Positions 1 through 16,734 of a stretch of 45,034 nt of DNA are shown here, one piece after another. The translations under genes and the position numbers were made by a program. How positions within the stretch are numbered: the first letter of the stretch is position 1; each line of letters opens with the position of its first letter. Origin of the DNA: a virus; the UHGV virus genome UHGV-0114729; one strand, written 5' to 3'. The notes beneath the pieces were generated by a model. It was not told the origin of the DNA. It saw only the letters and a program-made list of their open reading frames with translations, and made no database searches.

Positions 1-49
1 CACATTAAAGTACACAATATTTGTGCCCTTCTCTGTTTCTTTCCCGTTA

Positions 50-598
50 TCAGCTAGCTGGAAACTTTTTATACAGAGTTGAGAGCCCTACTCCATACGT
101 TTTTGATACGCTTTGTCGTGATTCACCGGTTGCCATCCGCTCCCCCATTTCCCGCCATTGCTCATCCGTGAACTTAGGCCTGCGACCACCAACTCGCCAT
201 TTTGCCCTGGCTACGGCCAGCCCTGCTAAGGTACGTTCGCTATTAAGATCAGATTCATATTGTGCTGCGGAAAGGATGTTACGAAAGTTATAGCGGCCGC
301 TGGCTGTTTTGAGATCCACGCCATCGGTAATACTGCGGAAGTTGATACCCTTTTCCTGTAACTGCTGGAACATCAACAGCGCATGCAGAACGTTGCGGCC
401 TATCCTGTCCAGCTTCCACACCACCAGTGTATCGCCCGCATTCAGAGTCCGCAGAAGCTTTTTGAGCGCTGGCCGGTTCGCTACCGTCCCGCTCATTTTT
501 TCTTCAAAAACCTGTTCACATCCTGCGCATTCCAGAGCGCCTCTCTGTAACGCTGTATTCTGGTCATTTGTTGATACCCGGATATATCCAATTTGCAC
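50..598 (-). CDS. Serine DNA invertase (Hin/Gin/Cin/Pin family)
   Basis: 182 aa. N-terminal MQIGYIRVSTNDQN serine-recombinase catalytic motif, resolvase core, C-terminal HTH (GESRQSVSKTYGVGLSTLYKKF). Abuts a hix/gix-like crossover site. Confidence 0.93.
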   Translation of the reverse strand: MQIGYIRVSTNDQNTALQRGALECAGCEQVFEEKMSGTVANRPALKKLLRTLNAGDTLVVWKLDRIGRNVLHALLMFQQLQEKGINFRSITDGVDLKTASGRYNFRNILSAAQYESDLNSERTLAGLAVARAKWRVGGRRPKFTDEQWREMGERMATGESRQSVSKTYGVGLSTLYKKFPAS

Positions 599-663
599 GA
601 ATTACCGCCTCTCTCTATCAAAAAACGCGTGAGAGTAACGGAGGTGGCTATAAATCGCATTAT

Positions 664-690
664 CACAAACCTCGGTTTGGGAACAGCGGC
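664..690. repeat. Left crossover site (hix/gix-like) of invertible segment
   Basis: CACAAACCTCGGTTTGGGAACAGCGGC matches the reverse complement of 2126-2152 at 26 of 27 positions. Core is AAACC-TC-GGTTT. Confidence 0.85.
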
Positions 691-1459
691 CACAAAGACG
701 GTCGGCACGGCGACAGGGAATTTGTTGGAAGTGGGCGCATTTGGTTTGGGCGTCAAGGTGCTGAAAGTGAATTCGGTCACTAACGCTGACAGTTTGGAAA
801 ATTGCTCGTTTGCAGCGGGCATTGGCAGCGACGCTATAAATTTTGCGTCTAATTTTGCCCCGATAATTGTAGCGGCGCGCGATGGTGGTGGGGATGGTAC
901 CGGACAGATCTCTCAGATCCAGAGCGATGACGCGCTGCTTGCGTTTAGATATCGAGGCGGCAATGTCTGGTCTCCGTGGCGTTATGTATATCATTCCGCA
1001 AATACAACAAAAACAAGCGATGGCACGTTAAAAGCTGCGTCGCCTGTAATTAAAATTTTTCACGACGGCTCTGCGGAAACTAACGATGAGTCAGAAGGTG
1101 TAACAGTCTCCAGATTGTGTGTTGGGCAGTACTTGATTGAAGGGTGTGTAGGAATGAACTCCGACGCGGCGTGGGGCGGGATTGATGGCGGGTTTGACAT
1201 TCCCCGAGATCGGAACGGACAGGCGCTAATCTGGCTGGATTACGAAGTGAATGCCGACGGATCAATCCTCGTCAAAACATATCACCGCACGTATCCCGCC
1301 GCTCCTGCATTTGCGCGTAACGAGATAGATGGGCTGGCAGCCGGCGACCCGGTCGACATTCCCGCCGACCAGTTCGTTTCTGTGCGCGTTGAAATGCCCG
1401 CTGATAGCATATGGAATCAGCGGCAATCAATTATTCTGGCTGATCAAGAGCCTGAGTGA
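665..1459 (+). CDS. Silent alternative tail-fibre C-terminal cassette (expressed only after inversion)
   Basis: The frame is open from the crossover codons T-N-L-G-L-G-T-A-A-T. GNLLEVGAFGLG is a typical tail-fibre motif. There is no plausible RBS or start of its own; the ORF-track M at 593 overlaps the invertase start region. Confidence 0.7.
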   Translation, partial: TNLGLGTAATKTVGTATGNLLEVGAFGLGVKVLKVNSVTNADSLENCSFAAGIGSDAINFASNFAPIIVAARDGGGDGTGQISQIQSDDALLAFRYRGGNVWSPWRYVYHSANTTKTSDGTLKAASPVIKIFHDGSAETNDESEGVTVSRLCVGQYLIEGCVGMNSDAAWGGIDGGFDIPRDRNGQALIWLDYEVNADGSILVKTYHRTYPAAPAFARNEIDGLAAGDPVDIPADQFVSVRVEMPADSIWNQRQSIILADQEPE

Positions 1460-2646
1460 CTTGCTCTTTGGTTATTTTGCAGTTGTGCTTGCAGGTCTGA
1501 AATTTGTTGTTGTAGAGCCTGAACACAGCCGAGGAGATCCATTACTATCGGGTTGTTGTCCACGGACGGGCGATCCCGATATTCCTCACTAATTTTATTC
1601 CCGGCCTCATCATACACCTCCGTGCCGGGAATTGGCTCTGGATTATGTTTGATATACTGCGGGGCAATTATTTCTGCGTCTTCCGCAATAACCCCAAAAC
1701 GTACTCGCTCTTGTTCGTCGTCACGGTAAATAAAATTAACAAGCTCAAGCGACAGCACTCTGTTTAGGGCGGTGGCCGCGTCCGCTAGCGCAATATTTTT
1801 CTTGTAATCCCTGCCAGACGTTCCCTGTAATGCAATCGTTCCCGTTGACGTCGGGAAGTTGATCATTACCTGTCCGGTTTTGTCCCAACCAGTGCCTATT
1901 CTTTTCACTAAATACACTGATACGAAATCATTACTCTCCGAATACGACGTCTCGAGCAACACAGTTTTACCAACAGTTGAATCGGGTGCCGAGGTGATTT
2001 CAAGAGTCATATCCGGGTACGACTGGCCTGAAATCCTTAATTTTGGCAGGGTCTGCTCCTGACTAAAGGTATTTTTTTCGCTCAGTAACGGGATTGCGCT
2101 ACCTGATGTGCCTGTGTTTACTGTCGCCGCTGTTCCTAAACCGAGGTTTGTGCGGGCCTCTGCTGCTGTTTTGCCACCGGTGCCGCCCTGAGCGATACTA
2201 AGCGCTGTAGTTAACCCGGTCAGGCTCGTAATGTCCTTATTTGCCCCTTTCTTCGCTAGCGATTTCTGACCAGGAACGGTCACAGCCACACCGTTAATCG
2301 TAATTGTCACGTCCCCTGTGCCGTTCATTACGTCAGCGAATCCGCTCATATTGCGCTGGTACAGAGTGAACGTCTCGGCAATATCTTGCGCCAGCCCATC
2401 AACGCTCAGACTATCACTCAGCAGAATTGAATATTTCGTACCGGCTGGAATTGCTGGGCTGGCAGCAGGCGTTACAGTGAGACTCGTAGCGCTGTTAATT
2501 GCAGTAATCTGAAATACCTGTGCCGGATTTGTCAGTGCAATAACAGTGCAGCCGTTCCGAATTAATGAACCCGCAGCAGTAAAATTAGTTCCGGTGCCGG
2601 TCAGAGTATTACCGCTGACAGCGATAGTGCCGGTTGTATAGATCAT
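1444..2646 (-). CDS. Tail fibre (currently expressed form) with C-terminal intramolecular-chaperone (peptidase S74-like) domain
   Basis: GGAG RBS 9 nt before MIYTTGTIAV. The C-terminus (SGRDYKKNIAL...VRFGVIAEDAE...NNPIVMDLLGCVQALQQQISDLQAQL) resembles the endosialidase/tail-spike auto-cleaving chaperone. The crossover site lies in-frame at codons TNLGLGTAAT. Confidence 0.85.
   Translation of the reverse strand: MIYTTGTIAVSGNTLTGTGTNFTAAGSLIRNGCTVIALTNPAQVFQITAINSATSLTVTPAASPAIPAGTKYSILLSDSLSVDGLAQDIAETFTLYQRNMSGFADVMNGTGDVTITINGVAVTVPGQKSLAKKGANKDITSLTGLTTALSIAQGGTGGKTAAEARTNLGLGTAATVNTGTSGSAIPLLSEKNTFSQEQTLPKLRISGQSYPDMTLEITSAPDSTVGKTVLLETSYSESNDFVSVYLVKRIGTGWDKTGQVMINFPTSTGTIALQGTSGRDYKKNIALADAATALNRVLSLELVNFIYRDDEQERVRFGVIAEDAEIIAPQYIKHNPEPIPGTEVYDEAGNKISEEYRDRPSVDNNPIVMDLLGCVQALQQQISDLQAQLQNNQRASHSGS
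2126..2152. repeat. Right crossover site of invertible segment
   Basis: Inverted copy of 664-690, located inside the tail-fibre ORF. Confidence 0.85.
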
Positions 2647-2663
2647 TTTATTTTCTCCAGGCA

Positions 2664-2688
2664 ATAAAAAAACCCCGCCGGAGCGAGG
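2664..2688 (-). terminator. Rho-independent terminator between cor and the tail-fibre gene
   Basis: Minus strand reads CCTCGC-TCCG-GCGGGG followed by TTTTTTTATT. Confidence 0.7.
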
Positions 2689-2709
2689 TTTATGTTTAAG
2701 CGTAGTGGG

Positions 2710-2943
2710 TTATTTGCAGGTTGTTTCGGTAAATGTATTCGCACTTACCCAGCGCCAGCTGAAAGGATATCCAGCCCGGTACTGCGTCTGGTTGTTTTGT
2801 TTACGCACACCGTAAATCTGAACCGTAGTTTCCTGACCGCCAACGATTGCAGTGCCGCTGCAAACTGGTTCCTGTTTCTCAATTACGCCAGCGCATCCTG
2901 TAAGCATGACAGCGCCTGCCATGCAGATAATCAGTTTTCTCAT
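2710..2943 (-). CDS. cor: Cor-type superinfection-exclusion lipoprotein
   Basis: 77 aa with signal peptide and lipobox (AVMLTGC). Size and position (after J, before the tail fibre) match phi80/N15/HK022 cor. Assignment is from memory of the family. Confidence 0.7.
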   Translation of the reverse strand: MRKLIICMAGAVMLTGCAGVIEKQEPVCSGTAIVGGQETTVQIYGVRKQNNQTQYRAGYPFSWRWVSANTFTETTCK

Positions 2944-3054
2944 TTTGATAGTATCCAGAGGAATTCAGTATCTTAGACGATACCAATACAATTCTGGTGG
3001 GTATAATTGATTGGATAGATCAATATTATGTTATTGATCGCTAAAAACGATCAA

Positions 3055-3729
3055 TCAATCATAGGCCGCTGTATTTATGGCGGTTAATGAAATGCCAGTA
3101 TTCGTTCCCCCTCCAGGTGAACCTGCCCCAGTGGAGGTCCCCCCTGCGTTTATCCTCGTATTGGCCCCGTCAAACCTGCATGAAGAATAAGCATTTATCG
3201 TGTAGATAGTCGGAGGCTTGGTTGAATTATTCACAATGATGGTCTGACCCAACTGAGCAGGTGCAACGGCCCATGACCCGCTCAGCGTCTGGTCAATATT
3301 TATCCCGCCGTTTGCACCAGGCGTGCCAACCGTCTGCAGGTCTGATAGCACACGGGACTCATTAGTTAACACAAGCTTTCCGCTCGCATCCCATATTGCC
3401 AAACCCCATTTCGGTAATATCTGCGGGAATATGGCAAAAACGTACGCCGTTAAAGTGAAACTTTGGTTGTAGGGATTAACACCAGCAACATACACATTAC
3501 CGCCGTTCCTGTAAGACATAACCGGAGTGGGCTGTGCTGTATTGGTGGTTTTGATAAAAACCATCACTGGGTAATCAGCGTTTAAAGCGATATTTTGAGC
3601 AACCTGCTGAGAACTGCCATTCGCGGATGAATTGAAGGTATACTTCCCGTAAAGACAGAAAGGCGTTGATTGTGGCGTTACAAAGGGATTCCCGTTATCC
3701 ATTAATATCATCGCGCCAAATTCGGCCAT
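3055..3729 (-). CDS. Hypothetical protein downstream of J (probably tail-tip associated)
   Basis: 224 aa. Start overlaps the stop of the upstream ORF. The N-terminus resembles that of the 100-aa neighbour (..D.(S)GNP..). Confidence 0.7.
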   Translation of the reverse strand: MAEFGAMILMDNGNPFVTPQSTPFCLYGKYTFNSSANGSSQQVAQNIALNADYPVMVFIKTTNTAQPTPVMSYRNGGNVYVAGVNPYNQSFTLTAYVFAIFPQILPKWGLAIWDASGKLVLTNESRVLSDLQTVGTPGANGGINIDQTLSGSWAVAPAQLGQTIIVNNSTKPPTIYTINAYSSCRFDGANTRINAGGTSTGAGSPGGGTNTGISLTAINTAAYD

Positions 3730-4031
3730 TATGCTTTCTCCATGAAAACGACCACCTCACATTTAGAGGCCGGGTAATTACCCAGGCCCACAGAAGAGGC
3801 TGCGGTTACGGTTATTGTGTTCCCTGACGCGACAATGCTCCTCCCTACGCTGTTACCTCCTTCATCAAGTGAGAGCGCAAAACCGACCTTCATTCCTGAG
3901 GGTACAGTGAAAGACCAGCTGCCGGAGTTTTGTCCGGCGGCAAGTTGTATACGTCCAACAACGGAAACGGGCTTGATTCCGTAGTTGTTGGGGTTTCCCG
4001 AAGCATCCCAGGTCTGTATTCCATAAGCCAT
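3729..4031 (-). CDS. Hypothetical protein downstream of J
   Basis: 100 aa, tightly packed after the J stop. Confidence 0.7.
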   Translation of the reverse strand: MAYGIQTWDASGNPNNYGIKPVSVVGRIQLAAGQNSGSWSFTVPSGMKVGFALSLDEGGNSVGRSIVASGNTITVTAASSVGLGNYPASKCEVVVFMEKA

Positions 4032-4032
4032 A

Positions 4033-7000
4033 TCAGAACACCCCCGTTAATCGGCCAACCTGCACTCTCAGAACGTTGTTGCCATCCTTGACGCTGATTG
4101 TCTGGTTGGTCTGCTTCATGGCTCCCTCCCCAGCTGTCGAACCGTAGTTCTCAAACGTCCCGGACTTATCCAGTTTCCAGCCAACAGAGCCGGCAACATA
4201 ATTGTTCGACTGGATGTAATTGCCAATTTTTGCATTGCTTATGGTCCCGTCGCCAATGACTGTATCCCTGATAATGGCCTGGCCATTCTGAATAACGAAT
4301 GGCAGCGTGACCGCACCACCGGCCTGAGTCATAACAGCAAAGCGGTTAGCCAGGAACAGCACCTGCGACTGCATACCTGCTGGCGTATTTTCGACTCCGA
4401 TACCCATTCCGGCAGCGTATTGCCGTCCGTTCGAGTCGATAGCGACTTTAATACTGTACATCGCATTCAGATTTCCGCTGATATCTGCAACCGCCCGTGC
4501 GTTCTGTTCAATTACTGTCGTCTGCCCATTAACTGACACTGTCAGCGAGTTAATCCGCGTTGCTGACGCCTGCGTGAAATCCGCAAGAGTTTTTGCAAAA
4601 TCAGTCGTATTTGCAGTACCACCTCCTGCACTTGAATCCAGCGTTTTGAGTGACTCAGCCACAGCCAGGCTTGCATCAGCCATCACGTTATCGACACGTT
4701 CGAGCCCTGCTTTATTGTCGCCGTACTGCACACTCATTCGCTGCGACTGATTCACCTGCGCTAACGTCTGCTGAATTACTGCAATCGCGTTATTCTGAAT
4801 GCCTCCTTTAATGACGCCCACATTACTGCTCTGATCTGCGATTTCTGCTGAGATTTCGTCAAAACGTAACGCTGTGGCGCTGTCCAAATCCGTGACCACT
4901 TGATCCAACTCGCTGATTTCTGCGGCATTGCGAGTACTGGCTTGTTCCGCCTCATCTGCTTTATCGCTGGCAGCTTTAGTAGCAGCAGAAAGCTCGTCGA
5001 GTCGCAGCGCTGTAGCTGATTCTGTATCTGTCACAACCTGCTCAAGCGCTGTGATTTTCGCTGCATTTTGTGCGCCAACCTTACCCGCCGCGTCCGCTTT
5101 AGAGTCGGCAGTCTTAGTAGCAGCATTGAGTTCATTAAGACGCGTCGCGACTGCTTGAGACTCGTCAGACATAGCTTGACGCACTTCAATGATATCAGCT
5201 GCGTTGTGCTCTGTAGTAGCTTCAAGGCGCAGTACATCAGCAACACGGGCTTCGGTCTCGTTGGCTATGGCTTCCTGTGTGCGCTCGATCCCGGCCTTGT
5301 TGTCCAGGTACTGAACCGTCATGGTGTTGCGCTGGCTAACCTGAGCTAACGTGTTGTTAATCAGAGCGATGGCATTACTCTGAATGCCGCCCGCAGCGCT
5401 GGCAGTAGCAGCGCTAAGCTCATCAAATCGTGAAGCGGCCGCAGAGGTGCTATCTGTAACAACTTGGGTAAGTGATGTGATATCCGCGCTGTTCTGTGCG
5501 CCAACCTTACCCGCCGCGTCCGTAGCAGCAGTAAGCTGATCGACAGCAGTTGCGCGGGCTTGAGTTTCATCAGCAAGTGCTTGTCGAACCTCAGTGATGC
5601 CCGCCGCGTTATCCTTCGTCTTAGCTTCGAGACGGGTAACATCGGTCACGCGAGCTTCAGTTTCTGTCGCTACAACTTCCCGTAGTTGCTCGAATTGCGC
5701 CGTATTAGCGCCGTTTTGGGCGGTCTGACGCAATACGACATCAGTAATCGCGAGAGAATTGGCAATAATAGCTTCAGCGGTCTGTTTGTTAGATGAAACC
5801 GCCGCGGCAAGACTATCTGCATTTTCACGAATCGCTGCTGCCAGATTTTCAGTACTGGATTTCAAATCCTCTGCAGTTTGTTTCCCGTCAATAATTGCAG
5901 CTGCCAGCGCGTCGGCATTTTCCCGGACCGCATCAGTCAGTTCGGCAATATTTTTGGTATCCTCATCTACAGTGGCGATCAGGTTTTTGAAAACCTCTGT
6001 TTCCTGAATCTCTTTGAATATTGCATCCGTAATTTCTGAAACATCGGTGCTCGCCTGCCCGCGCACCCAGTCGGTATACCCCGATTCGTTACCGGTCCGG
6101 TCAACAAGTTGCGCGCGGTACCAGAAAATCTGCCCAGCCTTAAGGCCCATCTGCTGATATTTGCGCTGCGGGTAAGGCACATCGGCCAGCAGCATTGCAT
6201 CGTCCTCGGTACCGGTCAGGCTATACTGAATTTCCGTCTTCAGCGTGTCTTCGGTATTCGCCGGGAATCCCCAGTTCAGCTCGATACCGAATACCACGTT
6301 TTCAGAAGCGATGAAGCCAACCGGCTTCGGTGGGTTTCCCACTTTACCCGTCAACGTTTTCTCTTCTGAATAGCCCCACCCAGATGAAATTTCGGCGGCA
6401 TTGATGGCACGCACGCGAACCAGGTAGCGTCCTGCATAAATCCCCGGAACATCGAATGACGTGGTGGAGCTGCGCGGCACATTCACCCAGTTCCCGTCAT
6501 TGCGACGCCACTGTGCCTCATACGCGATAGCATTTTTCGCCTGGTCCCAGCTGACGCGCATGGTCTCAACGCTGATATTCTGCTGAACGACAGAAAACGA
6601 ACTGATCGCGATATTAGCTGGCGGGGACTGATTACCGGGCGGAATTACACTTATTGGCCGCTGGTCGATAATGGCACCGGTATCGATACGCGCATATTTA
6701 TCCGGATCGTGCAAAGCGCCAGCAATCGAATACGTTCCGTCATTATTATCCGTAACGCTGATAACGCGATATTGCTGCGCGTAAAGCTCTTCAGACTCGA
6801 CAATCCACACCGATTCCACTGCAGGTGTTTCGCTGTATGCCGTTGTCACAGTGACGGCCCGCCCGTTTACGCTCTGTATCGTCCTGCTCTGCGATGCGCC
6901 GGACGGAAGGTTAACCATCAGACGGCTTCCGGGAGCGGCTGCCGAATCACGATCAAGCGTGATAACGCGACCGTTAACCGCACTGATGCGCCCTCCCATC

Positions 7001-8490
7001 ACTTTTCCGGAAAGCAGCTCATCGGCAACCGCGATGATATAACCAGGCTGTGGGATCTTACCGTCAAGACCAACATCGAACGACACGATGCGATCCTTGT
7101 TATTGGTCAGGATACCCCAACGTCCTTTGCGGTTTGCCTCTGACTGCCGGGTACAACCAATGGCTGTCATTTCGAGCTGATTTGTGCCAAAGCGAGCAAC
7201 GAGATCCTGCTCAAATACAGGCTCCATCGCATCCGCGTAGGCATTACCCGGATCGGACCAGGAAACCAGTGCCGTGGTATAGCGGGTTTTGGTGGTGCTG
7301 CCCGAATAGGTAAAGCGCCCATTAACCACGTTTGCACGCGTGTAGCTGTAATCCACATCGCGGGGCATATCCGCCAGCGCAACGATTTGATCGCCACCCC
7401 AGTACGTCATGCCCCGGAATATCGCCGCAAAATCACGTAACACGGTATAGGCGTCATTCCTCTCCTGCACGTACACGTTACAGGTATAGCGAGGCTCAGT
7501 GCCGCTACCGCCTTTACCATCAGGAACCGGCTGATCGCAATATTGCGCGACCTGATAAAGCGTCCATTTATCAATATTGGCCGCCGTCAGGCGATTGCCC
7601 AGCCCAAAGCGGTCGCTCACCACCAGATCGTAAAAAATCCAGGCTGGATTATCCGTCCACGCCCACTTAAACGCCCCTGTCCATGTGCCGCTGTAGGTGC
7701 GGGTCTCCGGGTCATACGTATCCGGAACGCGGATTACACGCCCTCGCGGTTCGCAGGATATTTGCGGGATAGAGCCGTTAAACTGGCTTGAGTCGAATTC
7801 GATGTACAGCAGCGCGGTATTTGGATAACGCAGTTTGGCGTCAATAACCTCTGTGTAGCTCTGCAGCGTCATCGTGTCGCCAATTTTCGCGCTGTTGGCA
7901 TCCGCCGTAAGCTTACGCAGGCGCACCGTCCATGTACTGCCTGCCTGTGGTAAATCGATACGATGGCTGCGTTCGTAGCCGGAAGTTGTCTTGCCGGTTA
8001 CGCTGGTATTAAGTACCGTCTGCCAGGTGCCGCCATCGGTCTGCAGATCAATAGCGTAGTTAATTGAATAGCCAACCAGATCGCCATCATCCTCCTGTTT
8101 AAAAAGCGATGGCCACTTGAGGCGCAGGCGAACGGCTGACAGTTGCGTGTTGGTAAAGGTATGTGTCCAGCCGGTGGTGCTTGACACTTCGGTGCCCACG
8201 CTGATTTCATTTTCTGTGCCGGGGATACCCTGAATATATTTTTGTGCCTGAGTCCCCGGACGAAATTCCCACGCCACGCCACTGAAGTTTTGCGATCCGT
8301 CTGCATTCTCCAGTGGCGTGCCATCGAGATAGATATCCTTCGCCGTCAACTGCCCTGCAAATTCGCCCTCTCCCAGTGCAACAAGAATTTTGGCTTTCGC
8401 TACGGACTGGAGATCGTCTGGTTGTTCAGTCGGGGTGCGTGAACTGGAGCTGCCGCCCTTGCGGCCTCTAATCGGAGTAGATGTAGCCAT
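4033..8490 (-). CDS. J: Tail tip / host-specificity protein J, with expanded Ala-rich coiled-coil region
   Basis: 1485 aa. The N-terminal two-thirds are colinear with lambda J. An internal repeat-rich coiled coil precedes the C-terminal receptor-binding part. Confidence 0.93.
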   Translation of the reverse strand: MATSTPIRGRKGGSSSSRTPTEQPDDLQSVAKAKILVALGEGEFAGQLTAKDIYLDGTPLENADGSQNFSGVAWEFRPGTQAQKYIQGIPGTENEISVGTEVSSTTGWTHTFTNTQLSAVRLRLKWPSLFKQEDDGDLVGYSINYAIDLQTDGGTWQTVLNTSVTGKTTSGYERSHRIDLPQAGSTWTVRLRKLTADANSAKIGDTMTLQSYTEVIDAKLRYPNTALLYIEFDSSQFNGSIPQISCEPRGRVIRVPDTYDPETRTYSGTWTGAFKWAWTDNPAWIFYDLVVSDRFGLGNRLTAANIDKWTLYQVAQYCDQPVPDGKGGSGTEPRYTCNVYVQERNDAYTVLRDFAAIFRGMTYWGGDQIVALADMPRDVDYSYTRANVVNGRFTYSGSTTKTRYTTALVSWSDPGNAYADAMEPVFEQDLVARFGTNQLEMTAIGCTRQSEANRKGRWGILTNNKDRIVSFDVGLDGKIPQPGYIIAVADELLSGKVMGGRISAVNGRVITLDRDSAAAPGSRLMVNLPSGASQSRTIQSVNGRAVTVTTAYSETPAVESVWIVESEELYAQQYRVISVTDNNDGTYSIAGALHDPDKYARIDTGAIIDQRPISVIPPGNQSPPANIAISSFSVVQQNISVETMRVSWDQAKNAIAYEAQWRRNDGNWVNVPRSSTTSFDVPGIYAGRYLVRVRAINAAEISSGWGYSEEKTLTGKVGNPPKPVGFIASENVVFGIELNWGFPANTEDTLKTEIQYSLTGTEDDAMLLADVPYPQRKYQQMGLKAGQIFWYRAQLVDRTGNESGYTDWVRGQASTDVSEITDAIFKEIQETEVFKNLIATVDEDTKNIAELTDAVRENADALAAAIIDGKQTAEDLKSSTENLAAAIRENADSLAAAVSSNKQTAEAIIANSLAITDVVLRQTAQNGANTAQFEQLREVVATETEARVTDVTRLEAKTKDNAAGITEVRQALADETQARATAVDQLTAATDAAGKVGAQNSADITSLTQVVTDSTSAAASRFDELSAATASAAGGIQSNAIALINNTLAQVSQRNTMTVQYLDNKAGIERTQEAIANETEARVADVLRLEATTEHNAADIIEVRQAMSDESQAVATRLNELNAATKTADSKADAAGKVGAQNAAKITALEQVVTDTESATALRLDELSAATKAASDKADEAEQASTRNAAEISELDQVVTDLDSATALRFDEISAEIADQSSNVGVIKGGIQNNAIAVIQQTLAQVNQSQRMSVQYGDNKAGLERVDNVMADASLAVAESLKTLDSSAGGGTANTTDFAKTLADFTQASATRINSLTVSVNGQTTVIEQNARAVADISGNLNAMYSIKVAIDSNGRQYAAGMGIGVENTPAGMQSQVLFLANRFAVMTQAGGAVTLPFVIQNGQAIIRDTVIGDGTISNAKIGNYIQSNNYVAGSVGWKLDKSGTFENYGSTAGEGAMKQTNQTISVKDGNNVLRVQVGRLTGVF

Positions 8491-8542: not shown

Positions 8543-9133
8543 TTATTGCTGGTCTTCGACATAAATCCCGGCAGAAATAATCGCACCGCCGATTTGCCGA
8601 CGACCATAAAGAAGCGGTACCGGATAGCCCTGCGCGGCGGTGTTGGTGACTCCACCGAACGCGTATGAGGCGCGGTTATCTGAACTCTGTTTGCTGGCCA
8701 GCCCCGCTGGTTGAGGGGAAAGCATCTGAACAACCCCGCCAATCATCATTGCGGCACCGAATTTGTATAAGAATGGTGATGCCGCAGCCCAGGGTGTGAA
8801 ATTAAGCACCGCCCCAACGGCAACCAGAACTGCACCAAGTATTGTCTGGAGTAATCCGGCCTTTTTGCTCCCGATAATCACCGGGACAATGCGAATGACA
8901 TCGCCGGTGACCGGGTAACCCAGGTCATCAACACCAATATTCTTTTTCCCTTTGAATACTGAATAAGTGAGACCACGGCGTTGGCTGGAAATCATAAACT
9001 GCTCAAAGCCCGGTATAGTCTTTGCCAGCGCAACACTCGCTTCGTTCACGCGGGAAATCAGGCGATGGTGAACTTTACCGAATGTTTTCCCGAGCACGCC
9101 GCCAAGCTCAATGCGGGTCATTACTTCCTGCAT
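8543..9133 (-). CDS. I: Tail assembly protein I
   Basis: Similar to lambda I across its length (..VPVIIGSKKAGLLQTILGA...YPVPLLYG..). Confidence 0.9.
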   Translation of the reverse strand: MQEVMTRIELGGVLGKTFGKVHHRLISRVNEASVALAKTIPGFEQFMISSQRRGLTYSVFKGKKNIGVDDLGYPVTGDVIRIVPVIIGSKKAGLLQTILGAVLVAVGAVLNFTPWAAASPFLYKFGAAMMIGGVVQMLSPQPAGLASKQSSDNRASYAFGGVTNTAAQGYPVPLLYGRRQIGGAIISAGIYVEDQQ

Positions 9134-9852
9134 GTTTCACCTGCCATTACATCTTTATAGCGAACGATCTTCATTGTGCGCTCCTGCCAGTATCCGCCAT
9201 AAGGAACACGTTGACTCAGATGCCCGTAAAGATGGTGCAGCAGCATGTTACCCTCCAGTAAAATCCCGGCATGATTCCACTTATCGGCCTGCACCTGCAT
9301 GATGACGAGGTCCCCTTCCTGAGGCGGACCATCAAACTCCCTGAATCCGCACTCGTACCAGCACTCCTGATAGAAATTGTCCGGGTAGTCGTTTTCCCAC
9401 CAGGGATAATCCACCCGGTAATCGTGGAGCTCGATACAGTGGGTCTGCCGGAAATAGCTCATTACCAGACCCCAGCAATCGAAGTGGCCAAGCACGAACG
9501 GACGCTCCAGCAATGGCAGCTCCCCGCGTGGCTGAATGGTACGTAAATCCCCCTCTGGCCAGCTCACAATATGCCAGGGCAGCAGCGTTGCATCACACTG
9601 CGCCTTATCCAGCTCGCTGGCCTGCGTCGTCGCATCAGGATGGCTGTGAACAATGGCCACCACCGTCCCCCAGTCTTCTGCCGCTGCGTAATCTTCGGGG
9701 GACAGGTGAAAATGTTCAGTCGGCTCTGCTGCGAGATTACGACAGGGAAAATAGCGCTCAACCCGGCTTTTCTGTGCCACCACGCCGCAGCACTCTCGCG
9801 GATATTCCGCTGCAGCGTGTGCCATGATGGCATCAATGGTTTTCTGGCGCAT
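9121..9852 (-). CDS. K: Tail assembly protein K (JAB/MPN + NlpC/P60)
   Basis: HSHP..D JAMM motif and an NlpC/P60 Cys (FDCWGLV). The likely start MRQKTID abuts the L stop. Confidence 0.9.
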   Translation of the reverse strand: MRQKTIDAIMAHAAAEYPRECCGVVAQKSRVERYFPCRNLAAEPTEHFHLSPEDYAAAEDWGTVVAIVHSHPDATTQASELDKAQCDATLLPWHIVSWPEGDLRTIQPRGELPLLERPFVLGHFDCWGLVMSYFRQTHCIELHDYRVDYPWWENDYPDNFYQECWYECGFREFDGPPQEGDLVIMQVQADKWNHAGILLEGNMLLHHLYGHLSQRVPYGGYWQERTMKIVRYKDVMAGETCRK

Positions 9853-9853
9853 A

Positions 9854-10609
9854 TCAGCTCCTGATAAGAGATGTACCGGGGAAACCGCCAAACGGCAGCT
9901 CGTTGCTGTCTCCGTGCCGGAGCTTGCAGGCCGTCAGCGTGCCGTTGCAGACATCCAGCGATGGATCGTCAACCGGATTATTGTTTTTGTCGAAATAGCG
10001 CGTTCCGGCATAGTCGCAGCCGTCGCCGGTCCGGTACTTGTTCCGGATGCACCAGCTGCATAACGAATGCAGCTGCCGCGTGGGTATCATCTGGCCCTGT
10101 AAATCCATCGGACTGGAAAGCGTAAATTCAACAGATTCATCCGTCTCGGTGCTTCTGGCATCGATATAAAAGACCTTCAGCTTTTCCTGTGACGGGTCTG
10201 CAGTGGGATTGCCCTGCGGAAAATTTCTGGCGTCCAGATACTGTGCCAGCGTGTCGTGGATACTCACTTTCGCCTGCAGCAGATCGTCATACGCCAGACA
10301 GAGCGCTGAGATCGAGCTGTCCAGGTTCGCCACACTCAGTTTTGGCTGTGGACTGGTACCGTCCGTAGTCGCTTCAATACCCTCAACCTGACACGGCCAG
10401 GCTTTATACTCCTCCCCCTGCCACCAGATGGACTTCGCCGGAAGTTTATTCTCATCCCCGCCTGCAGCCTCAATCTCTTCCGGGGTATGCGCGATATTAT
10501 GTGCGTGGAAGCGGAGTACATCTGACATACCGAACGCTGTGCCATCGACAGAAAAAAGCCGGACTTCATTGCCCGGCTCGAGTTTTTGATAATCAGCATT
10601 AAGACTCAT
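9854..10609 (-). CDS. L: Minor tail protein L
   Basis: C-terminal Cys cluster (CSWC...C..C) and lambda L-like sequence. Confidence 0.9.
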   Translation of the reverse strand: MSLNADYQKLEPGNEVRLFSVDGTAFGMSDVLRFHAHNIAHTPEEIEAAGGDENKLPAKSIWWQGEEYKAWPCQVEGIEATTDGTSPQPKLSVANLDSSISALCLAYDDLLQAKVSIHDTLAQYLDARNFPQGNPTADPSQEKLKVFYIDARSTETDESVEFTLSSPMDLQGQMIPTRQLHSLCSWCIRNKYRTGDGCDYAGTRYFDKNNNPVDDPSLDVCNGTLTACKLRHGDSNELPFGGFPGTSLIRS

Positions 10610-10953
10610 GGTGCAAATGCCTGTTCAAACGTTGCGGTTACGGTTATCACTTTTACGTTTTTAACCACCTTTTTGAGCGTGTCAGCCTCGACACGCCACA
10701 GCGCGGTATCGCCGAAAGGCGGTGTGAAAATAAACGACTTCACTTTATGCCGCCGAAGGAAAGCGTGAATTTCATTCGCTGTAGTCGGATCCCCTGAAAA
10801 GGAATATTCATAGGTACGAATCTCATCATTCAGGCCGGAGCCGCTCACCTGTGCGTACCCGTCGCCGAACTGGACCTTCCTGACTGTGTCTTTGCTTCCC
10901 TCGGTGGGCTGGCTGGAAACCTTAATGCCCCAGGGGAATGTTTCTATCGTCAT
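10606..10953 (-). CDS. M: Minor tail protein M
   Basis: VRKVQFGDGYAQ motif as in lambda M. Confidence 0.9.
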   Translation of the reverse strand: MTIETFPWGIKVSSQPTEGSKDTVRKVQFGDGYAQVSGSGLNDEIRTYEYSFSGDPTTANEIHAFLRRHKVKSFIFTPPFGDTALWRVEADTLKKVVKNVKVITVTATFEQAFAP

Positions 10954-10958
10954 AACTG

Positions 10959-13475
10959 TTACCTGCGATTGGTCGCATTCCAGATAAGCCCACCGGGCTG
11001 GATTGCCCTGGCGATACCATCGTTGACAGATTTGTTAATCACCTGCTGATACGCCTTACCCAGCCTGTCTCCGTCGTTTTGCTGCTGTGCGTTACCGGAA
11101 GCATTCTCGACCGTCACCGGGGCATATACACTGACACCGAAAGGTGCTGCAGCCGGGCCTGTACCACCGCCCCCGACATACCCACCCGTGGCATACCCTT
11201 TCATCATCCGGTAAAGATTGCCGACGCCGATCCGGCTGGTAGCCTCTTTGGTGAAAACAAATTCACCACGGTGAACGACACCTGCAGGTTCATATTTCCC
11301 GCCTGAACCGGTATAACCGCCACCTGCAAATCCCAGCGCGGTTGTCGCTGAATCCACCAGGCCTACCATCGCCTGTTTCAGCAGGATCTGTGTCAGCATG
11401 GAGAGCGTGGAGCGGGTGAAGTCAGCCCAGTCAGCCTTTCCGCGCGTCAGCATGTCAGCCATATTTTGCCCGATGCCATCAAACGCACTGGTGGCAGCCG
11501 ACTTCATCTGGCCATAAGCATCTGAAGCGGAATCAACATAATCTGCCCATGCGGATTTGGCTCCGGACTGCCAGTCGTCCCGCAGCTTATCCTGCTCGGC
11601 GTAATACGCCTGCAGCGCCTGCAGCTCATTCTGATAACCAGCATCGTTCTCCGAACCACCACCATTTTTCCAGCCCTGAAGAAGCTGGGCCTCTTCATTG
11701 CGACGTTGTGCTGCACGACTGCTCATACCAGCACTTTCCGCAAGGGCTCGGGTTTTCTCGCCGATCTGCGTGACGTATTTTTGGGACGTATCCTGCAGGC
11801 GATTAAGCCGCTCCTGCGCCACTATCTGATCGCCGAGCTTCGCATTCAGCTCCGCACGGGAAAGCACCTCACTTTTACTGGCCAGCAGGGATTTTTCCTC
11901 AGCAGAAAGCGTTCGGGTCTTCGCGGCCTCTTCCAGAACCGTAAAGCGGGACTGCTGACGCCACAGCTCCTGACGCTGCTGGCTGATGGTGTCATTGATG
12001 CTCTTATGCTCCTGCAGGGTGCGCAGCTGTGTCTGTAGCTCCAGCGTCTGGGCACTGGCCGTATCGGTGGCACGGGCACCTGCGGGGGTTCTGATTGCCG
12101 GGGTCTTCTTCGGCTTTTTAAGGGTGTCTTCGTACTCTTTTTTCGCGGCAGCCAGGTTGATGTTGTAGTCAGCCTGGAGGATCCGCCCCTCTTTCAGCGC
12201 CTTGTTGAGCTCGCTCTGCCTGGCCGTGTATTTCTCAAGGGCAGTTTGGGTTTTGGCATAGTTGGCCTGAGCCTGCGCGGCATATTTCTGACGATCGGAC
12301 TCTGCGACCGCTTCACGGGAAGCATTCTCTTCGTTCGCTTTGGCAATACCAGCCTGCTGCTGCGCCATATCCAGTGCCAGTCTGGCCGTTTCACGATCAT
12401 TCCAGAACCGGGCGCGGGCCTCATCATTCACATAATGATCGCCTTTACGCAGATTCCAGATTTCATCAGCCTTTTTAAACGCGGCCTGGGCTTTTGCCAC
12501 CATCTCCTGGGCGGTGTCAGGTCTGCCAATATCAAGTGCAGCATCCCACATCGACTTGAAGGCACGCTTCAGGGAATCCGCTGAAGACTCAATCGTCCCC
12601 ATATTGTCGCGGATGGCCTTGGTCTGATCGTTGAATCCGGCAGTAGCAGCCTGATTAGCCGCCTGCAGTGCGCCAGCCTCATCACCGGCACGCTGCAGCT
12701 GTGCCACATGGGCAATCTGTTCGGCCGTAACATTGTGGAACTGCTGAGCCATCGCGATCAGGCCTGATGTCGGGTCAGTAGTGAGCTTGCCGTATGCGGC
12801 TGCGACTTTTTCCACCGGCACGCCGGAGGCATCAGTAAATCGCGCCACCGCCTGGCTCATTTCATCAAAGCGCGAACTCGCGCCCACCCCCGCGTTGATA
12901 AGCTCGCTCAGGGCTTCGCTGGTCTGATTGAACGTCAGCCCCGCTGCCTGGCCGTTTCGTGCCAGCGCCAACATACGATCGGCAGTCAATCCGGCCGTGT
13001 TCCCCGACAGTACCAGCGTTTTGTTGAAGTCAGATAGTGTGGATGAGCCCTGGTACCAGGCATAGAACAGCGCACCCGTTGCGGCGGACAGTGCACCGAT
13101 GCCGACCATCAACGGTGAGATCGTACCCAGTAAGGCCCGGAATGTTGGTATTATCCCGCCAAAGGAGTCCTTAACCTGACCGCCCTGCTGAAGCAGAATC
13201 AGCCATGGGTTCTGCCCGCCCGCTAGCTGCGTAGCTATATCGGTAAACTGCGCCGGAAGCATACGCATTGCTGCGTTATACTGGCCTATTGAAATACCCG
13301 CCTTGCGCGCGGCGTTCTCCTGGCGGCTAAAGGACTGCTGGATCCGTAGCGCTTCGTCGTTCGCCGCGCTGCCAGTCTGCTTTAATTCTTTTTTGACGTA
13401 GTTAAGCTGCTCGTTAAATTTCGTCGAGTTAACGTCAAGGTTAACGACCAGATCACCCACTGCCGTCTGGGCCAT
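10959..13475 (-). CDS. H: Tape measure protein
   Basis: 838 aa, helical and Ala/Gln-rich, with hydrophobic segments and a Gly-rich C-terminus. Position as in lambda H. Confidence 0.92.
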   Translation of the reverse strand: MAQTAVGDLVVNLDVNSTKFNEQLNYVKKELKQTGSAANDEALRIQQSFSRQENAARKAGISIGQYNAAMRMLPAQFTDIATQLAGGQNPWLILLQQGGQVKDSFGGIIPTFRALLGTISPLMVGIGALSAATGALFYAWYQGSSTLSDFNKTLVLSGNTAGLTADRMLALARNGQAAGLTFNQTSEALSELINAGVGASSRFDEMSQAVARFTDASGVPVEKVAAAYGKLTTDPTSGLIAMAQQFHNVTAEQIAHVAQLQRAGDEAGALQAANQAATAGFNDQTKAIRDNMGTIESSADSLKRAFKSMWDAALDIGRPDTAQEMVAKAQAAFKKADEIWNLRKGDHYVNDEARARFWNDRETARLALDMAQQQAGIAKANEENASREAVAESDRQKYAAQAQANYAKTQTALEKYTARQSELNKALKEGRILQADYNINLAAAKKEYEDTLKKPKKTPAIRTPAGARATDTASAQTLELQTQLRTLQEHKSINDTISQQRQELWRQQSRFTVLEEAAKTRTLSAEEKSLLASKSEVLSRAELNAKLGDQIVAQERLNRLQDTSQKYVTQIGEKTRALAESAGMSSRAAQRRNEEAQLLQGWKNGGGSENDAGYQNELQALQAYYAEQDKLRDDWQSGAKSAWADYVDSASDAYGQMKSAATSAFDGIGQNMADMLTRGKADWADFTRSTLSMLTQILLKQAMVGLVDSATTALGFAGGGYTGSGGKYEPAGVVHRGEFVFTKEATSRIGVGNLYRMMKGYATGGYVGGGGTGPAAAPFGVSVYAPVTVENASGNAQQQNDGDRLGKAYQQVINKSVNDGIARAIQPGGLIWNATNRR

Positions 13476-13806
13476 AGCGCACGCCTCCTGAAATACCTGC
13501 AGCCTTCGCCATCAGCGTATCGTCATCCGGCTCATCAACGTCGATGCTTTCCGATACAGGGGAAAGGATGCTGAAACTGTCCGGTGTTAATTCCGGATCA
13601 GCAAAAAACAGGGTTGAGATGGTGTAGAGCAAACCGGAGAAATGAGCATCCAGCTGCGCATCATGAAAGTAATTGTCCTGGTAGAAGATTTTCCAGTCGC
13701 CGTATTCCGTTGAGGACATGCCAGCAAGCATGGCACGCCAGTCCGGGCGACCGAACTCACGCGCCAGTTTCATGGCAAACTTCAGCTCACTGGCGAGGGC
13801 TTTTCC
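13453..13806 (-). CDS. T: T portion of the G-T tail assembly chaperone (reached by -1 frameshift from G)
   Basis: The -1 frame is open only from about 30 nt before the G stop. Candidate slip site is GGAAAAG at 13800-13806. Confidence 0.65.
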   Translation of the reverse strand, partial: GKALASELKFAMKLAREFGRPDWRAMLAGMSSTEYGDWKIFYQDNYFHDAQLDAHFSGLLYTISTLFFADPELTPDSFSILSPVSESIDVDEPDDDTLMAKAAGISGGVRYGPDGSG

Positions 13807-14204
13807 GCAGTAACAGGTTCAGCGGGTTCATTACGTTCTTCACCGGGCTCAGCCTGGTCATCAGTGACCGGCGCAATCATCCCGGACAGGAGTTTCACCT
13901 TATATTCGGCTTCGGCAACAAGTTCGGTCGGCCATGTCTGCATGACCTCATCCTGAATCTGCTCCACTTCCGCCGCCGCGTTTTCTCCCTGCGATCCTTT
14001 AAGCGCGTGGCCATGCCAGAGTGACATTGCCACCAGATATGCTCCACTCTTCACGGTAAGGGTAATGGCAGCCTGAAAATCACCAGCTTCAACCGCCTCA
14101 AGTTGTTTCAGGTATTCGAGGTATTCAATACGCTGCAGCGCCGACAGCTGGAACAATGTGACGCTGCTGCCGTTACTTTCAAGCAGCTCGCTCTTTAGAA
14201 ACAT
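13782..14204 (-). CDS. G: Tail assembly chaperone G
   Basis: 140 aa, lambda G-like, acidic C-terminus. Confidence 0.88.
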   Translation of the reverse strand: MFLKSELLESNGSSVTLFQLSALQRIEYLEYLKQLEAVEAGDFQAAITLTVKSGAYLVAMSLWHGHALKGSQGENAAAEVEQIQDEVMQTWPTELVAEAEYKVKLLSGMIAPVTDDQAEPGEERNEPAEPVTAEKPSPVS

Positions 14205-14240
14205 AATTACTCCGGGGGAACGGGGCTTTCGCCCCGGTTA

Positions 14241-14978
14241 TCAGGAAACAGTGACTTTGCAGATCGCCACAAAGTTACCGTCATTGCTCATTACGATGAT
14301 CTCGACGGTGCCTGCCGCCACGCCGGTAACAGTCAGGGTATTGCCGCTGACGGTGACCGTTGCTTTTGACGGATCAGAACTGGCTACGCGGAAAGACTTA
14401 TCTGAAGCACTTGCTGGCAGGACAGAAACAACCAGTTGCGTCGTGGCCGCGACAGCCACAGCCGCCGTGGATTTATCCAGGCTGATCCCCGTAACGGCAA
14501 TCGGCGCGGTACCACTGTCTTCGGCCAGCGATGGTTTGCCATTGTTGGTGATTTTTGCCGTGCGGGTCATGACCTCTTTAGACGAGATGGTCTTGCCGAG
14601 ACTGCTCACCCAGCCCTTAAAGACATCGACAACACCATTCGGATATTTGATTTTATACCCCTTCACGGTGCCTTCATCGAACCAGTTCACCAGGTCCTGC
14701 TGACCGGAATCCTCCGGCATCCATGCGAGCGTCAGGTTTGTTTCACCGGCTGATTTCTGCCCCTGCATCGTTGATGTCCAGTCGGCATTCTCATCATCGA
14801 TGTAGGTGTCATCTTCCGATTCAGCTGTCAGTTCTCCGGGCTGCAGGTCTTTAATCTTTGCCAGGCGCAGCCAGTCAACGTCTGAAAGCGGATTGGCGTA
14901 TGGATCACCAGTTCCGGTGTAAACCCAGAGGGTGGTACCAGCACCTTTTGTTGGTGCCAGCGGGTTTGGTGTGGCCAT
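14241..14978 (-). CDS. V: Major tail protein V with C-terminal Ig-like (Big_2) domain
   Basis: Lambda V-like N-domain. The C-terminus ([24 protein letters not shown]) is typical of Big_2. Confidence 0.92.
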
Positions 14979-14985
14979 AGGGTCC

Positions 14986-15384
14986 TCACATGTCGTAAGT
15001 AATGGAATATTTCAGGTCGGCAGAACTCCACAGCGCCATATCGTCATCGCGCTGGTAGTCATAGCCCTGCTGAACCATTGTGGTGATAAGAGATTCAAGC
15101 CCCGGAACCTCTGCGAGAACCGGATACACTCTCGTCTCCATCCAGTCATCCAGATCAGAATCAGGTACCTGAGCCTCAAGAAAGACTTCGATATGCAGAA
15201 TGGCCTGCCAGCTATCGGCGTCCAGTTCTTCCCCTGTGTATTCCGCATCTGTCAGGTAGACGGCAACAGCGGGAAAATCACCCTCTTCGAGCACTGCAGG
15301 TCTGCCGTCAAAATAAATGACATCAGTACCAATCGCGCTTTCCAGCGCGTCAATAATCACCTTGCGAATATCGCTGTGTTTCAT
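14986..15384 (-). CDS. U: Tail terminator protein U
   Basis: 132 aa, lambda U-like, position conserved. Confidence 0.88.
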
Positions 15385-15935
15385 CGTGTCAGAATTAACC
15401 TGAGTTGGTTGGTAAGGGATGCCCGGAGCTCTTTGGGCATATCTGACTCCATGAGCTTCGGCAGTTCTTCTTTAAATGCCGTAGTTAATGGAGCTGCCAG
15501 CGGGATGCTGACCACTTCAATGGGGTAACGAGGTTTTGAAGTCCGCCTCATGACATGCCAGCGACCATTTTTAAGTTGCTGGATAAAGCCGCCCGGAAAA
15601 CGAAATGGCCCTATGCGCAGAACGCTGTTGGCCCCTTTCTTGTCCCGTTTTCTGCGGGAAAGTCGCACGCTTGCGGTACCGAGTTTAATGGCCGGTAAAT
15701 TTCCCCGGTTTACCCGGATAAGTGCACGAGGTCTATTGACCGTCGCACGCTTCACCCTGGCGCGTTGCTTTACCAGTTTTCGCGGTACGCGCGTATCTTT
15801 TGATACGACTGCCACGCTGCGGCTGACGGCCCGGTTTGCCACGCGGTTAACGGCCTGCGCCGATGCCCGCGGAACAGCCGTTTTGCTGATGCTGTTAAGG
15901 TTTTCTATGGCCTGTTCAAGGCCTTTTATGGACAT
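15381..15935 (-). CDS. Z: Tail completion protein Z
   Basis: 184 aa, lambda Z-like, overlaps the U start. Confidence 0.88.
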   Translation of the reverse strand: MSIKGLEQAIENLNSISKTAVPRASAQAVNRVANRAVSRSVAVVSKDTRVPRKLVKQRARVKRATVNRPRALIRVNRGNLPAIKLGTASVRLSRRKRDKKGANSVLRIGPFRFPGGFIQQLKNGRWHVMRRTSKPRYPIEVVSIPLAAPLTTAFKEELPKLMESDMPKELRASLTNQLRLILTR

Positions 15936-15944
15936 ATGCGCTCC

Positions 15945-16298
15945 TTAACGGCGACGCGAAGATGCAGGTGGAGAGCCGTTACCCAGACAGATATGACAGG
16001 AGCCACAGTCATCCGGACCAATACGTTCAACCCAGAATTGCCGACCGTTAATCGTCAGCGTGTCCATACGCTGCAGCTGCCTGACAGTGGCGGTTTCCAC
16101 AAACAGGGTCGGGCTGGTTCCTTCAACACGAATCCCGGCACCGGCATATCCGATATTTTCTGGATCATCGAATACACCGACCAGGGTGGCACCTGACAAA
16201 GCGCCTGACATCACCTTTGCCTCTGTGCCCATCACACCACGGATAGCGCTATCAGCTCGCGACATGGCCTCGTCAAAGAGATTATCGAAATCAGCCAT
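15945..16298 (-). CDS. FII: Head-tail joining protein FII
   Basis: 117 aa, lambda FII-like. Confidence 0.88.
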   Translation of the reverse strand: MADFDNLFDEAMSRADSAIRGVMGTEAKVMSGALSGATLVGVFDDPENIGYAGAGIRVEGTSPTLFVETATVRQLQRMDTLTINGRQFWVERIGPDDCGSCHICLGNGSPPASSRRR

Positions 16299-16308
16299 GT
16301 GGCCCCCT

Positions 16309-16734
16309 TCAGACTTCGAAAGCCAGCCCCTTTGCGATCAAGTCGTCGGCATCCTGTTCAGATACGCGGATAATCACACCAGGCTCTACGATAGATACCG
16401 GCTCGTTACGCGTGGCATGCAGAGCGTCAATATGCAGGGTGGCCAGCGTTTCTACTGATACCAGGTCACCCGTTGTGGCCGATTCCGTTTTTACTTTTGC
16501 CACGTTAGCAACATTGTTGTCGGTGCTGTCGGTGCTGTCGGTGCTGTCGGTGCTGTCGGAAGCATTCTGCACGCCGTTTTCACCGTCAACTGACCCGGCA
16601 TTGCCATCCAGTTCCTCTTCAAGCTCAGCAATACGCATCGTCAGTTCCTGAATGGTGCCGCTGGTACTGACCTCGCGGTTAAGCTGGGTCCCAAGTTCAT
16701 TCAGGCGGGCGACCAGCTTTTCTTTTTCTGTCAT
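16309..16734 (-). CDS. FI: DNA packaging protein FI
   Basis: MTEKEKLVARLNELGTQLNRE and LHIDALHATRNEPV match lambda FI. GGAG RBS before the ATG at 16734. Confidence 0.85.
   Translation of the reverse strand: MTEKEKLVARLNELGTQLNREVSTSGTIQELTMRIAELEEELDGNAGSVDGENGVQNASDSTDSTDSTDSTDNNVANVAKVKTESATTGDLVSVETLATLHIDALHATRNEPVSIVEPGVIIRVSEQDADDLIAKGLAFEV
16521..16556. repeat. 9-bp tandem repeat x4 (CGGTGCTGT) encoding (STD)4 in the FI linker
   Basis: Read directly from the sequence. In-frame, so it codes DSTDSTDSTDSTD. Confidence 0.95.

Follow-up and report, generated by a model that had tools for sequence, protein, structure and literature searches.

A probable two-state Gin/Pin-type inversion switch in the side tail fibre gene of a phi80-like Escherichia coli prophage

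We analysed the virus genome UHGV-0114729, a stretch of 45,034 nucleotides (nt) that is called the window throughout and represents a complete lambdoid, phi80-like prophage of E. coli. Close to its left end lies pin, a serine invertase gene, next to a 1.47-kb segment of a side tail fibre gene. An earlier note made from the letters alone had described this segment as invertible and as exchanging the receptor-binding half of the fibre. We arrive at a similar reading: with a probability of about 0.85 the locus is a working or very recently working two-state inversion switch of the Gin/Pin type in a phi80-like side tail fibre gene. The switch is genuine, and it is probably active. This conclusion draws on the anatomy of the locus, on the homologies of its parts, on both orientations of the segment, which we observed in near-identical prophages, and on the position of the exchange, which could be placed within 15 bp.

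Megablast searches with window positions 1-2700 against 5426 complete E. coli genomes returned 14 genomes in which the best match covers exactly 664-2152 at 100% identity, with the flanks matching separately on the opposite strand. In L001 (NZ_CP085069) window positions 2122-6152 (99.93%) and 1-694 (99.7%) align in one orientation and 664-2152 (100%) in the reverse, the overlap between the pieces being exactly the 31-nt repeat that brackets the segment. In L001 and L002 the flanks agree with those of the window at 99.7-99.9%, and 664-2152 is present in reverse at 100%. We also flipped the segment in silico by exchanging 673-2143 and used the resulting 600-nt junction as a query. This flipped junction was present at full length and 100% identity in 14 of the 5426 complete genomes; the junction of the window state matched none of them beyond the repeat. 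The fibre annotated in the 14 flipped genomes is the predicted 429-amino-acid (aa) fusion of the constant part to the cassette ending in the Phage_tail_C_2 domain, which bears out the earlier proposal that inversion joins the constant N-terminus to another C-terminus. Both fusions are open reading frames (ORFs), with 400 aa in the window state and 429 aa in the flipped state. The two mismatches between the repeat arms, at 679 and 691, travel with the segment in the flipped genomes, so the exchange took place within 664-678, a stretch that holds the dinucleotide TC at 672-673. The position of strand exchange is thus resolved to 15 bp around the central dinucleotide.

A wider protein collection contained both states as well. 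There, 21 contigs carry the 400-aa fusion of the window state and 26 its silent partner ORF; for the 429-aa flipped fusion the number is 162, to which variants with one changed residue add about 30. The window state was seen in at least three chromosomal backgrounds. Between L012, which is in the window state, and the flipped L001 there are 2 substitutions in 3.2 kb of the flank on the pin side and 2 in 4.0 kb on the other side; with flanks this similar, the inversion is essentially the sole difference between them. Contig ends were also considered as a sign of mixed orientation and were discarded as ambiguous: about 10 of 51 related loci, and many proteins labelled 'partial', end just past the site, and the longer repeats (57 nt in LLS) and repeated cassette starts of relatives break short-read assemblies anyway.

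The segment is bracketed by an inverted repeat whose arms (664-694 and 2122-2152) were found in a repeat search as 31 nt with 2 mismatches (679 G/A and 691 C/G) and 94% complementarity. These arms contain the 27-bp repeat with one mismatch described before (664-690 and 2126-2152). The longest perfect identity between the arms is 15 bp, followed by 11 bp. Other inverted repeats in 1-4200 reached at best 22-24 nt with 71-77%, and the 27-mer, with as many as 3 mismatches allowed, has just two occurrences in the 45 kb and none in 100 shuffles. Translation places both copies in frame on the codons T-N-L-G-L-G-T-A-A-T, as had been stated, reading ...EARTNLGLGTAATVNTG in the expressed minus-strand fibre gene, inside which the right copy lies, and ...IITNLGLGTAATKTVG in the plus-strand ORF.

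Each repeat arm overlaps a 26-bp site consisting of two imperfect 12-bp half-sites and a 2-bp core, and the two sites are in inverted orientation, as in Gin, Hin, Cin and Pin systems. Both carry the identical core dinucleotide TC, and they are the only two such sites in the 45 kb. When compared with gix of phage Mu, for which the boundaries of the G segment were taken from NC_000929, the site at 660-685 shares 18 of 26 positions and the site at 2131-2156 shares 15 of 26. The former has the full 12-nt core AAACCTCGGTTT and the outer TTATC of Mu gix, with TTATC beside the invertase gene. Mu S reads gix as I-Q-N-L-G-L-Q-E, and the N-L-G-L frame is the same in the window. The crossover core is therefore of the gix type in core, dinucleotide and reading frame, in agreement with the earlier assignment.

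The invertase gene lies 66 nt from the invertase-proximal site, and its assignment to the serine invertases held up: the product has the Pfam domains Resolvase (E 1.3e-37) and HTH_7 (E 1.2e-9) and matches the Gin crystal structure 3uj3 over residues 1-181 with E 1.3e-62, gamma-delta resolvase reaching only 5e-21. Its identity is 52% to Mu Gin in a global alignment, 52-56% to Gin and Cin, 85% to PinL of phage phi80 and 97% to Pin of mEpX1, and its GYIRVSTNDQ aligns with GYVRVSTNDQ of Gin. The stretch of pin that aligns with the annotated cin enhancer of P7 (nt 19-86) is strongly conserved and contains the invariant blocks GTATCAACAAATGA and GCAGGATGTGA about 49 bp apart. It also codes for the catalytic motif VSTND and for AGCE, and the conservation is uninformative because this coding constraint explains it equally well. 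Scans between fibre and pin detected neither a terminator nor a consensus promoter. On a speculative and rather improbable reading, flipping might therefore be driven mainly by late read-through transcription in lytic growth, which would fit the orientation bias of about 88:12 in lysogen assemblies. Read on the strand of pin, the outer half-site is TGTGATAAT, which resembles an extended -10 element, and GATAAT is likewise present at the gin-proximal gix of Mu.

The fibre gene is laid out with a constant exon outside the segment and alternative C-terminal exons inside it, joined in frame through the site. We place its start at ATG 2646 (MIYTTGTIA, as in homologues) rather than at TTG 2664. In the constant part, residues 3-107 align with N-terminal ends of phage depolymerases and residues 125-182 with fibres of R-pyocins. 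As reported before, the two cassettes converge and their 3' ends overlap by 16 nt (1444-1459). The earlier note had further stated that the left repeat copy heads an ORF that lacks a start and a ribosome-binding site of its own. This is roughly correct, but in-frame GTG (644) and TTG (593) codons do lie ahead of the silent frame. The sequence GGAG adjoins GTG 644 with no spacer, and a 271-aa product starting there would miss the 170-aa N-terminal part of the fibre. Gene callers report this 271-aa ORF over the silent cassette (P0134, 26 contigs), and window positions 644-1459 on the plus strand are annotated as a free-standing 271-aa 'hypothetical protein'. In flipped genomes the mirror ORF (L001 4781-5509) is annotated as a 242-aa 'tail fiber domain-containing protein', which occurs on 183 contigs. 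Both stand-alone calls are silent exons, not genes.

The expressed tip has a Peptidase_S74 domain at aa 279-330 (32.3 bits, against a Pfam gathering cut-off of 22). Residues 202-390 of the expressed fibre match residues 884-1070 of LtfA of phage DT57C with E 1.5e-52 and reach the LtfA C-terminus; DT57C is a T5-like phage whose lateral fibres are required on O-antigen-bearing hosts. A serine four residues ahead of the S74 match (…GTSGRDYKKNI…) is a candidate autocleavage site. The silent cassette, searched separately, likewise resembles tail fibre tips. It matches Phage_tail_C_2 (PF25670) with E 1.7e-59, reaching aa 246 of 264, and phrog_1591, 'tail fiber protein', and its identity is 68% with the gp25 tip of phi80 and 58% with that of gp22 of Escherichia phage LLS. 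Pfam gave no S74 domain in it, so the presence of this domain in the ON cassette and its absence from the OFF cassette were as described. Within the PDB sequence set the closest protein is SU10 gp12, of which residues 535-785 of 786 are homologous (E 1.3e-66). The PDB entries of SU10 gp12 and DT57C LtfA model N-terminal parts only, so these matches give no folds for the tips. An AlphaFold2 model of the silent cassette made with 25 homologues was of low confidence (mean predicted local distance difference test score 59.7, predicted template modelling score 0.43). Foldseek searches of the PDB with this model returned only weak, elongated matches to R2-pyocin fibres (E 1.5e-4, template modelling score 0.24), which is consistent, as far as such a model goes, with the name 'pyocin knob domain' given by NCBI to some homologues.

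The claim that chaperone genes of the U/U' or Tfa type are missing was upheld. Tblastn searches with Mu U, Mu U' and P7 U' across the whole window gave a best E of 0.37, and a Pfam scan of the segment found nothing besides S74 and Phage_tail_C_2, the two cassettes filling the segment. For an S74 tip the lack of a Tfa/U gene is expected. A Phage_tail_C_2 tip lacking such a gene is consistent with phi80, with LLS and with hundreds of homologous fibres of 420-445 aa that end in this way.

Taken together, we propose that Pin would bind the gix-like sites at 660-685 and 2131-2156 and, as the probable catalyst of the inversion, exchange strands at the central TC, so that 673-2143 turns around. Fis would presumably take part, together with an enhancer at the 5' end of pin. 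The constant part of 168 aa would thereby be joined in frame, via the N-L-G-L codons, to one of two tips: in the window state the S74 tip, predicted to be self-chaperoned and related to the O-antigen-dependent LtfA of DT57C, and in most public genomes the Phage_tail_C_2 tip resembling phi80 gp25. Only the cassette fused to the constant part would be expressed, from late transcription passing in through the terminator at 2670-2691, and neither tip should need a separate chaperone.

Several points weigh against this reading. All 14 complete genomes are in one state and nine of them are derivatives of one strain, about 88% of all contigs are in the flipped state, and the orientations were taken from consensus assemblies of separate prophages, not from reads of one culture. 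The one-sided counts could reflect rare inversion, selection or clonal sampling. In addition, a consensus scan gave no sigma-70 promoter for pin, and an enhancer within pin is not distinguishable from coding conservation. That the tips bind different receptors and in this way change adsorption or host range is what we infer, and the Enterobacter locus L075, compared below with phage FRphi, is assigned to the FRphi type by gene order, not by the published FRphi sequence. The uniform state of the complete genomes would also be expected if the locus had flipped formerly and were now static, the orientations in the databases being old inherited states. Phage phi80 provides a model for such a frozen relic, as it retains pinL together with a pseudogene labelled 'tail collar' and a degenerate site (AAAGGTTGGTTTGGGAGAAGCGGC), and has no second cassette. 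In the window, however, pin, both sites and both cassettes are intact. Moreover, the segment is 100% identical whichever way it lies and its flanks show only 2-5 substitutions over several kb, which dates the flip as very recent, and the window state is found against at least three host backgrounds and in two prophage backbones. We therefore consider a static locus unlikely.

Even less probable, to the point of being hardly credible, is that the two orientations arose through RecA-dependent recombination between the repeats, or through misassembly, instead of site-specific recombination. Inverted repeats are in principle all possible substrates, and assemblers struggle at this place, many draft contigs of relatives ending just past the site. 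Yet the longest perfect identities of 15 and 11 bp are short, an identity of 15 bp lying below the length that RecA uses efficiently, and the exchange falls in just the 15 bp that contain the gix core. A repeat of 31 bp is shorter than any read, so that the orientation is fixed by the data, and within either state closed long-read genomes give the same picture as independent drafts. A different objection concerns what is switched. Phage_tail_C_2 might be a joint on which a second, separately encoded distal protein docks, in which case inversion would alter the architecture of the fibre and not just its specificity, switching between a one-piece self-chaperoned S74 tip and a two-protein fibre. 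This idea comes from the SU10 match given above, gp12 having been described as the proximal long-fibre protein of this kuravirus and as the attachment point of the distal protein gp13. In every match of the PHROG family, though, the domain stands at the extreme C-terminus of proteins named tail fibres; phi80 gp25 and LLS gp22 end with it and are not followed by a distal-fibre gene. No candidate partner gene was found adjoining the module, and in other backbones with the identical module the genes between J and the fibre are exchanged for others. We think a docking joint doubtful and favour the exchange of two alternative tips by a Gin/Pin-type inversion.

The principle is not new: inversion of fibre tips has been known since Mu and P1 and was recently shown in the related lambda-like phage FRphi. 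New here is a two-cassette member that pairs S74 with Phage_tail_C_2, which is of modest importance and adds no new principle. It is, however, the intact counterpart of the orphan pinL region of phi80 and explains the origin of that relic. Public genomes alone gave clean evidence of natural inversion, with the exchange mapped to the gix core. In the output of annotation pipelines the silent cassette appears as a protein of its own, named 'tail fiber domain-containing protein', and a host-range prediction made from an assembly hinges on the orientation fixed by the assembler. The small, self-contained cassettes would be handy parts for the engineering of phage receptor-binding proteins.

The module as a whole is very compact, free of chaperone genes and travels among lambdoid backbones in clinical E. 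coli and Enterobacter. In L008, L010, L011 and L013 homology of 98.3-99.7% starts exactly at the terminator (2691) and extends across fibre and segment as far as pin, the shared block corresponding to window positions 408-2691. These loci have unrelated genes between J and the fibre and a different integration site, near aspS/yecD. From the homology boundary and the replaced neighbours it follows that fibre, segment and invertase behave as a single exchangeable unit, with the terminator as left boundary of this stf-segment-pin module. L010 (Logan ERR271456, locus 6049-7914) additionally shows tandem invertase genes of 184 and 182 aa with DinI in between, which suggests either a junction of two prophage ends or a duplication of the module.

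Coordinates are collected in Table 1. The module lies beside cor, as stated previously. The terminator between cor and the fibre gene forms a strong hairpin directly upstream of the ribosome-binding site of the fibre gene, and the side fibre and the genes downstream of it, including pin, would be reached from the late operon by read-through only. The window also encodes RecE/RecT-like genes and the central tail-fibre protein J of 1485 aa (4033-8490), about 350 aa longer than lambda J. Within J, especially at 4747-5522 in a stretch rich in Ala, Thr and Glu, direct repeats that have diverged from one another occur at spacings of 426 nt (repeats of 119 nt), 138 nt (64 nt) and 585 nt (60 nt). No tRNA genes were found in the window. 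In other genomes the same prophage sits at the phi80 attachment site beside yciI and tonB. Several copies of GTACACA are present at both ends of the window (1-30 and 44950-45034, adjoining the integrase gene); judged from their position and sequence, they are possibly arm-type binding sites of the integrase flanking the att core.

Table 1. Features of the fibre switch and its surroundings in the window, with gix of Mu for comparison.
Feature	Position	Strand	Description
pin, serine invertase of the Gin/Pin/Cin/Hin family	50-598	minus	182 aa, GTG start, catalytic motif GYIRVSTNDQ
Invertase-proximal 26-bp gix-like site	660-685		TTATCACAAACC-TC-GGTTTGGGAACA; core TC 672-673; repeat arm 664-694
Silent (OFF) tip cassette	665-1459	plus	about 260 aa, Phage_tail_C_2 / 'pyocin knob'-type end; readable only after inversion
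Expressed side tail fibre	1444-2646	minus	400 aa, ATG at 2646
Expressed (ON) tip cassette	1444-2143	minus	about 233 aa; distal domain, S74 intramolecular chaperone, C-terminal coiled coil
Constant-side 26-bp gix-like site	2131-2156		fibre sense CCCGCACAAACC-TC-GGTTTAGGAACA; core 2143-2144; repeat arm 2122-2152
Constant N-terminal exon of the side tail fibre	2144-2646	minus	about 168 aa, ends ...GGTGGKTAAEARTN (translation)
Rho-independent terminator between cor and fibre gene	2670-2691	minus	terminator scan; also annotated in phi80 and mEp237
cor	2710-2943	minus	
Integrase	43791-45029		
Mu gix			TTATCCAAAACC-TC-GGTTTACAGGAA; from NC_000929

With the G segment and Gin of Mu and the C segments and Cin of P1 and P7 the locus shares a serine invertase beside the segment and two convergent alternative C-terminal exons. 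The likeness to Mu extends to the 26-bp site, its core, the TC crossover, the outer TTATC and the N-L-G-L frame of S and S', and with about 168 aa the constant N-terminal part of the window fibre is close in length to that of Mu S, which has 169 aa. Mu and P1, however, are myoviruses with segments of 3-4.2 kb, whereas the segment of the window measures 1.47 kb. Each tip of Mu and P1 has its own assembly gene of the U/U' (Tfa) type, which the window segment lacks; here, 16 nt are common to both cassettes, and one tip comes with its S74 intramolecular chaperone. Fibre C-termini are also switched by Gin-family invertases in the P segment of e14 (Pin) and in p15B (Min), e14 being a defective lambdoid prophage and Min a multi-cassette system. 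The cassettes of e14 and p15B are of the Mu/P1/lambda Stf-Tfa type and are accompanied by tfa genes.

The lambdoid siphovirus LLS (PQ299149) is closer in layout, with the gene order J, two small genes, fibre, opposed fibre cassette and invertase. Its annotation lists IR-L and IR-R, the opposed fibre genes 22 and 23 and a 'serine-type DNA invertase Fin'. It has the same pair of cassettes (Phage_tail_C_2 and S74), no chaperone genes and a site beginning AAACCTCGGTTTGGGAAG, and its identity to the window is 55% in the constant part of the fibre, 58% in the Phage_tail_C_2 cassette and 60% in the invertase. LLS differs in being deposited with Phage_tail_C_2 in the ON position, in annotated repeats of 57 nt, in cassettes that lie 61 nt apart and in its integration at ssrA. 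Its authors suggested from the arrangement a switching of tips similar to Mu and P1, and gave no inversion evidence (2025; PMC12315714).

FRphi, a lambdoid, FhuA-dependent temperate phage of Enterobacter sp. BIDMC93, has a fibre 'shufflon' for which long-read sequencing revealed three C-terminal isoforms in prophage and virions; deletion of the downstream gin freezes the fibre locus, and a single isoform infects the test host (2025 preprint, 2026 paper; PMC13418256). The loci L074 and L075 of the Enterobacter cloacae complex (locus 9001-16900) contain a fibre gene, two or three Phage_tail_C_2 cassettes, a resolvase and a 140-aa ORF, followed by flagellin and a 310-aa TnpB-like (OrfB_IS605) gene beside lepA, which is the gene order described for FRphi, a flagellin-remodelling phage. 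Compared with the window, the fibre is 56%, the invertase 61% and Cor 78% identical, and fibres and invertases of FRphi-type loci range from 54 to 61%. The constant-side site of L075, probably an FRphi-type locus, is identical to that of the window over 24 nt (CGCACAAACCTCGGTTTAGGAACA). Like the window module, FRphi-type loci adjoin cor. FRphi has three sites and three tips, all of them Phage_tail_C_2 in L075, and carries fliC-tldR, whereas the window has two sites, two unlike tips and no flagellin module.

Phage phi80 (JX871397) shares with the window the yciI/tonB attachment site, the order J, small genes, cor, terminator and fibre, the Phage_tail_C_2 tip of gp25 and a closely related invertase, PinL. 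A literature search on pinL gave matches to unrelated papers only. In phi80, gp25 (L003 6246-7457) has no NLGL site and a fixed tip, and the second cassette is missing; beside pinL (L003 about 5099-5200) lie the 'tail collar' fibre-fragment pseudogene and the degenerate pin-proximal site mentioned above. Judged by these remnants, phi80 looks like a locked, decayed version of the switch.

The constant N-terminal domain has a wide distribution across Enterobacter, Kluyvera, Kosakonia, Pseudescherichia and Escherichia, and many unrelated C-termini follow its ...ARTNLGLG... motif. In about 11 of some 40 related loci of full length a Pin homologue follows 2-3 kb downstream, preceded at about 90 nt by inverted copies of the site, and some related loci carry three sites. 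In L047 (E. hormaechei) S74 is expressed and Phage_tail_C_2 silent, with a 4-nt overlap of the cassettes, and L046 combines two Phage_tail_C_2 cassettes with one S74 and has an overlap of 35 nt. The window has the traits of the LLS/FRphi-type module, namely the constant domain, the site in ...ARTNLGLG..., an invertase of 182 aa and cassettes without tfa. The four traits that the earlier note had singled out as unusual are present in the sequence, but they are not unusual, as they recur in LLS, in Enterobacter relatives and in FRphi-type loci. The compact, chaperone-free design beside cor is thus a trait of this family, one that had already been noticed and that is experimentally proven in one relative.

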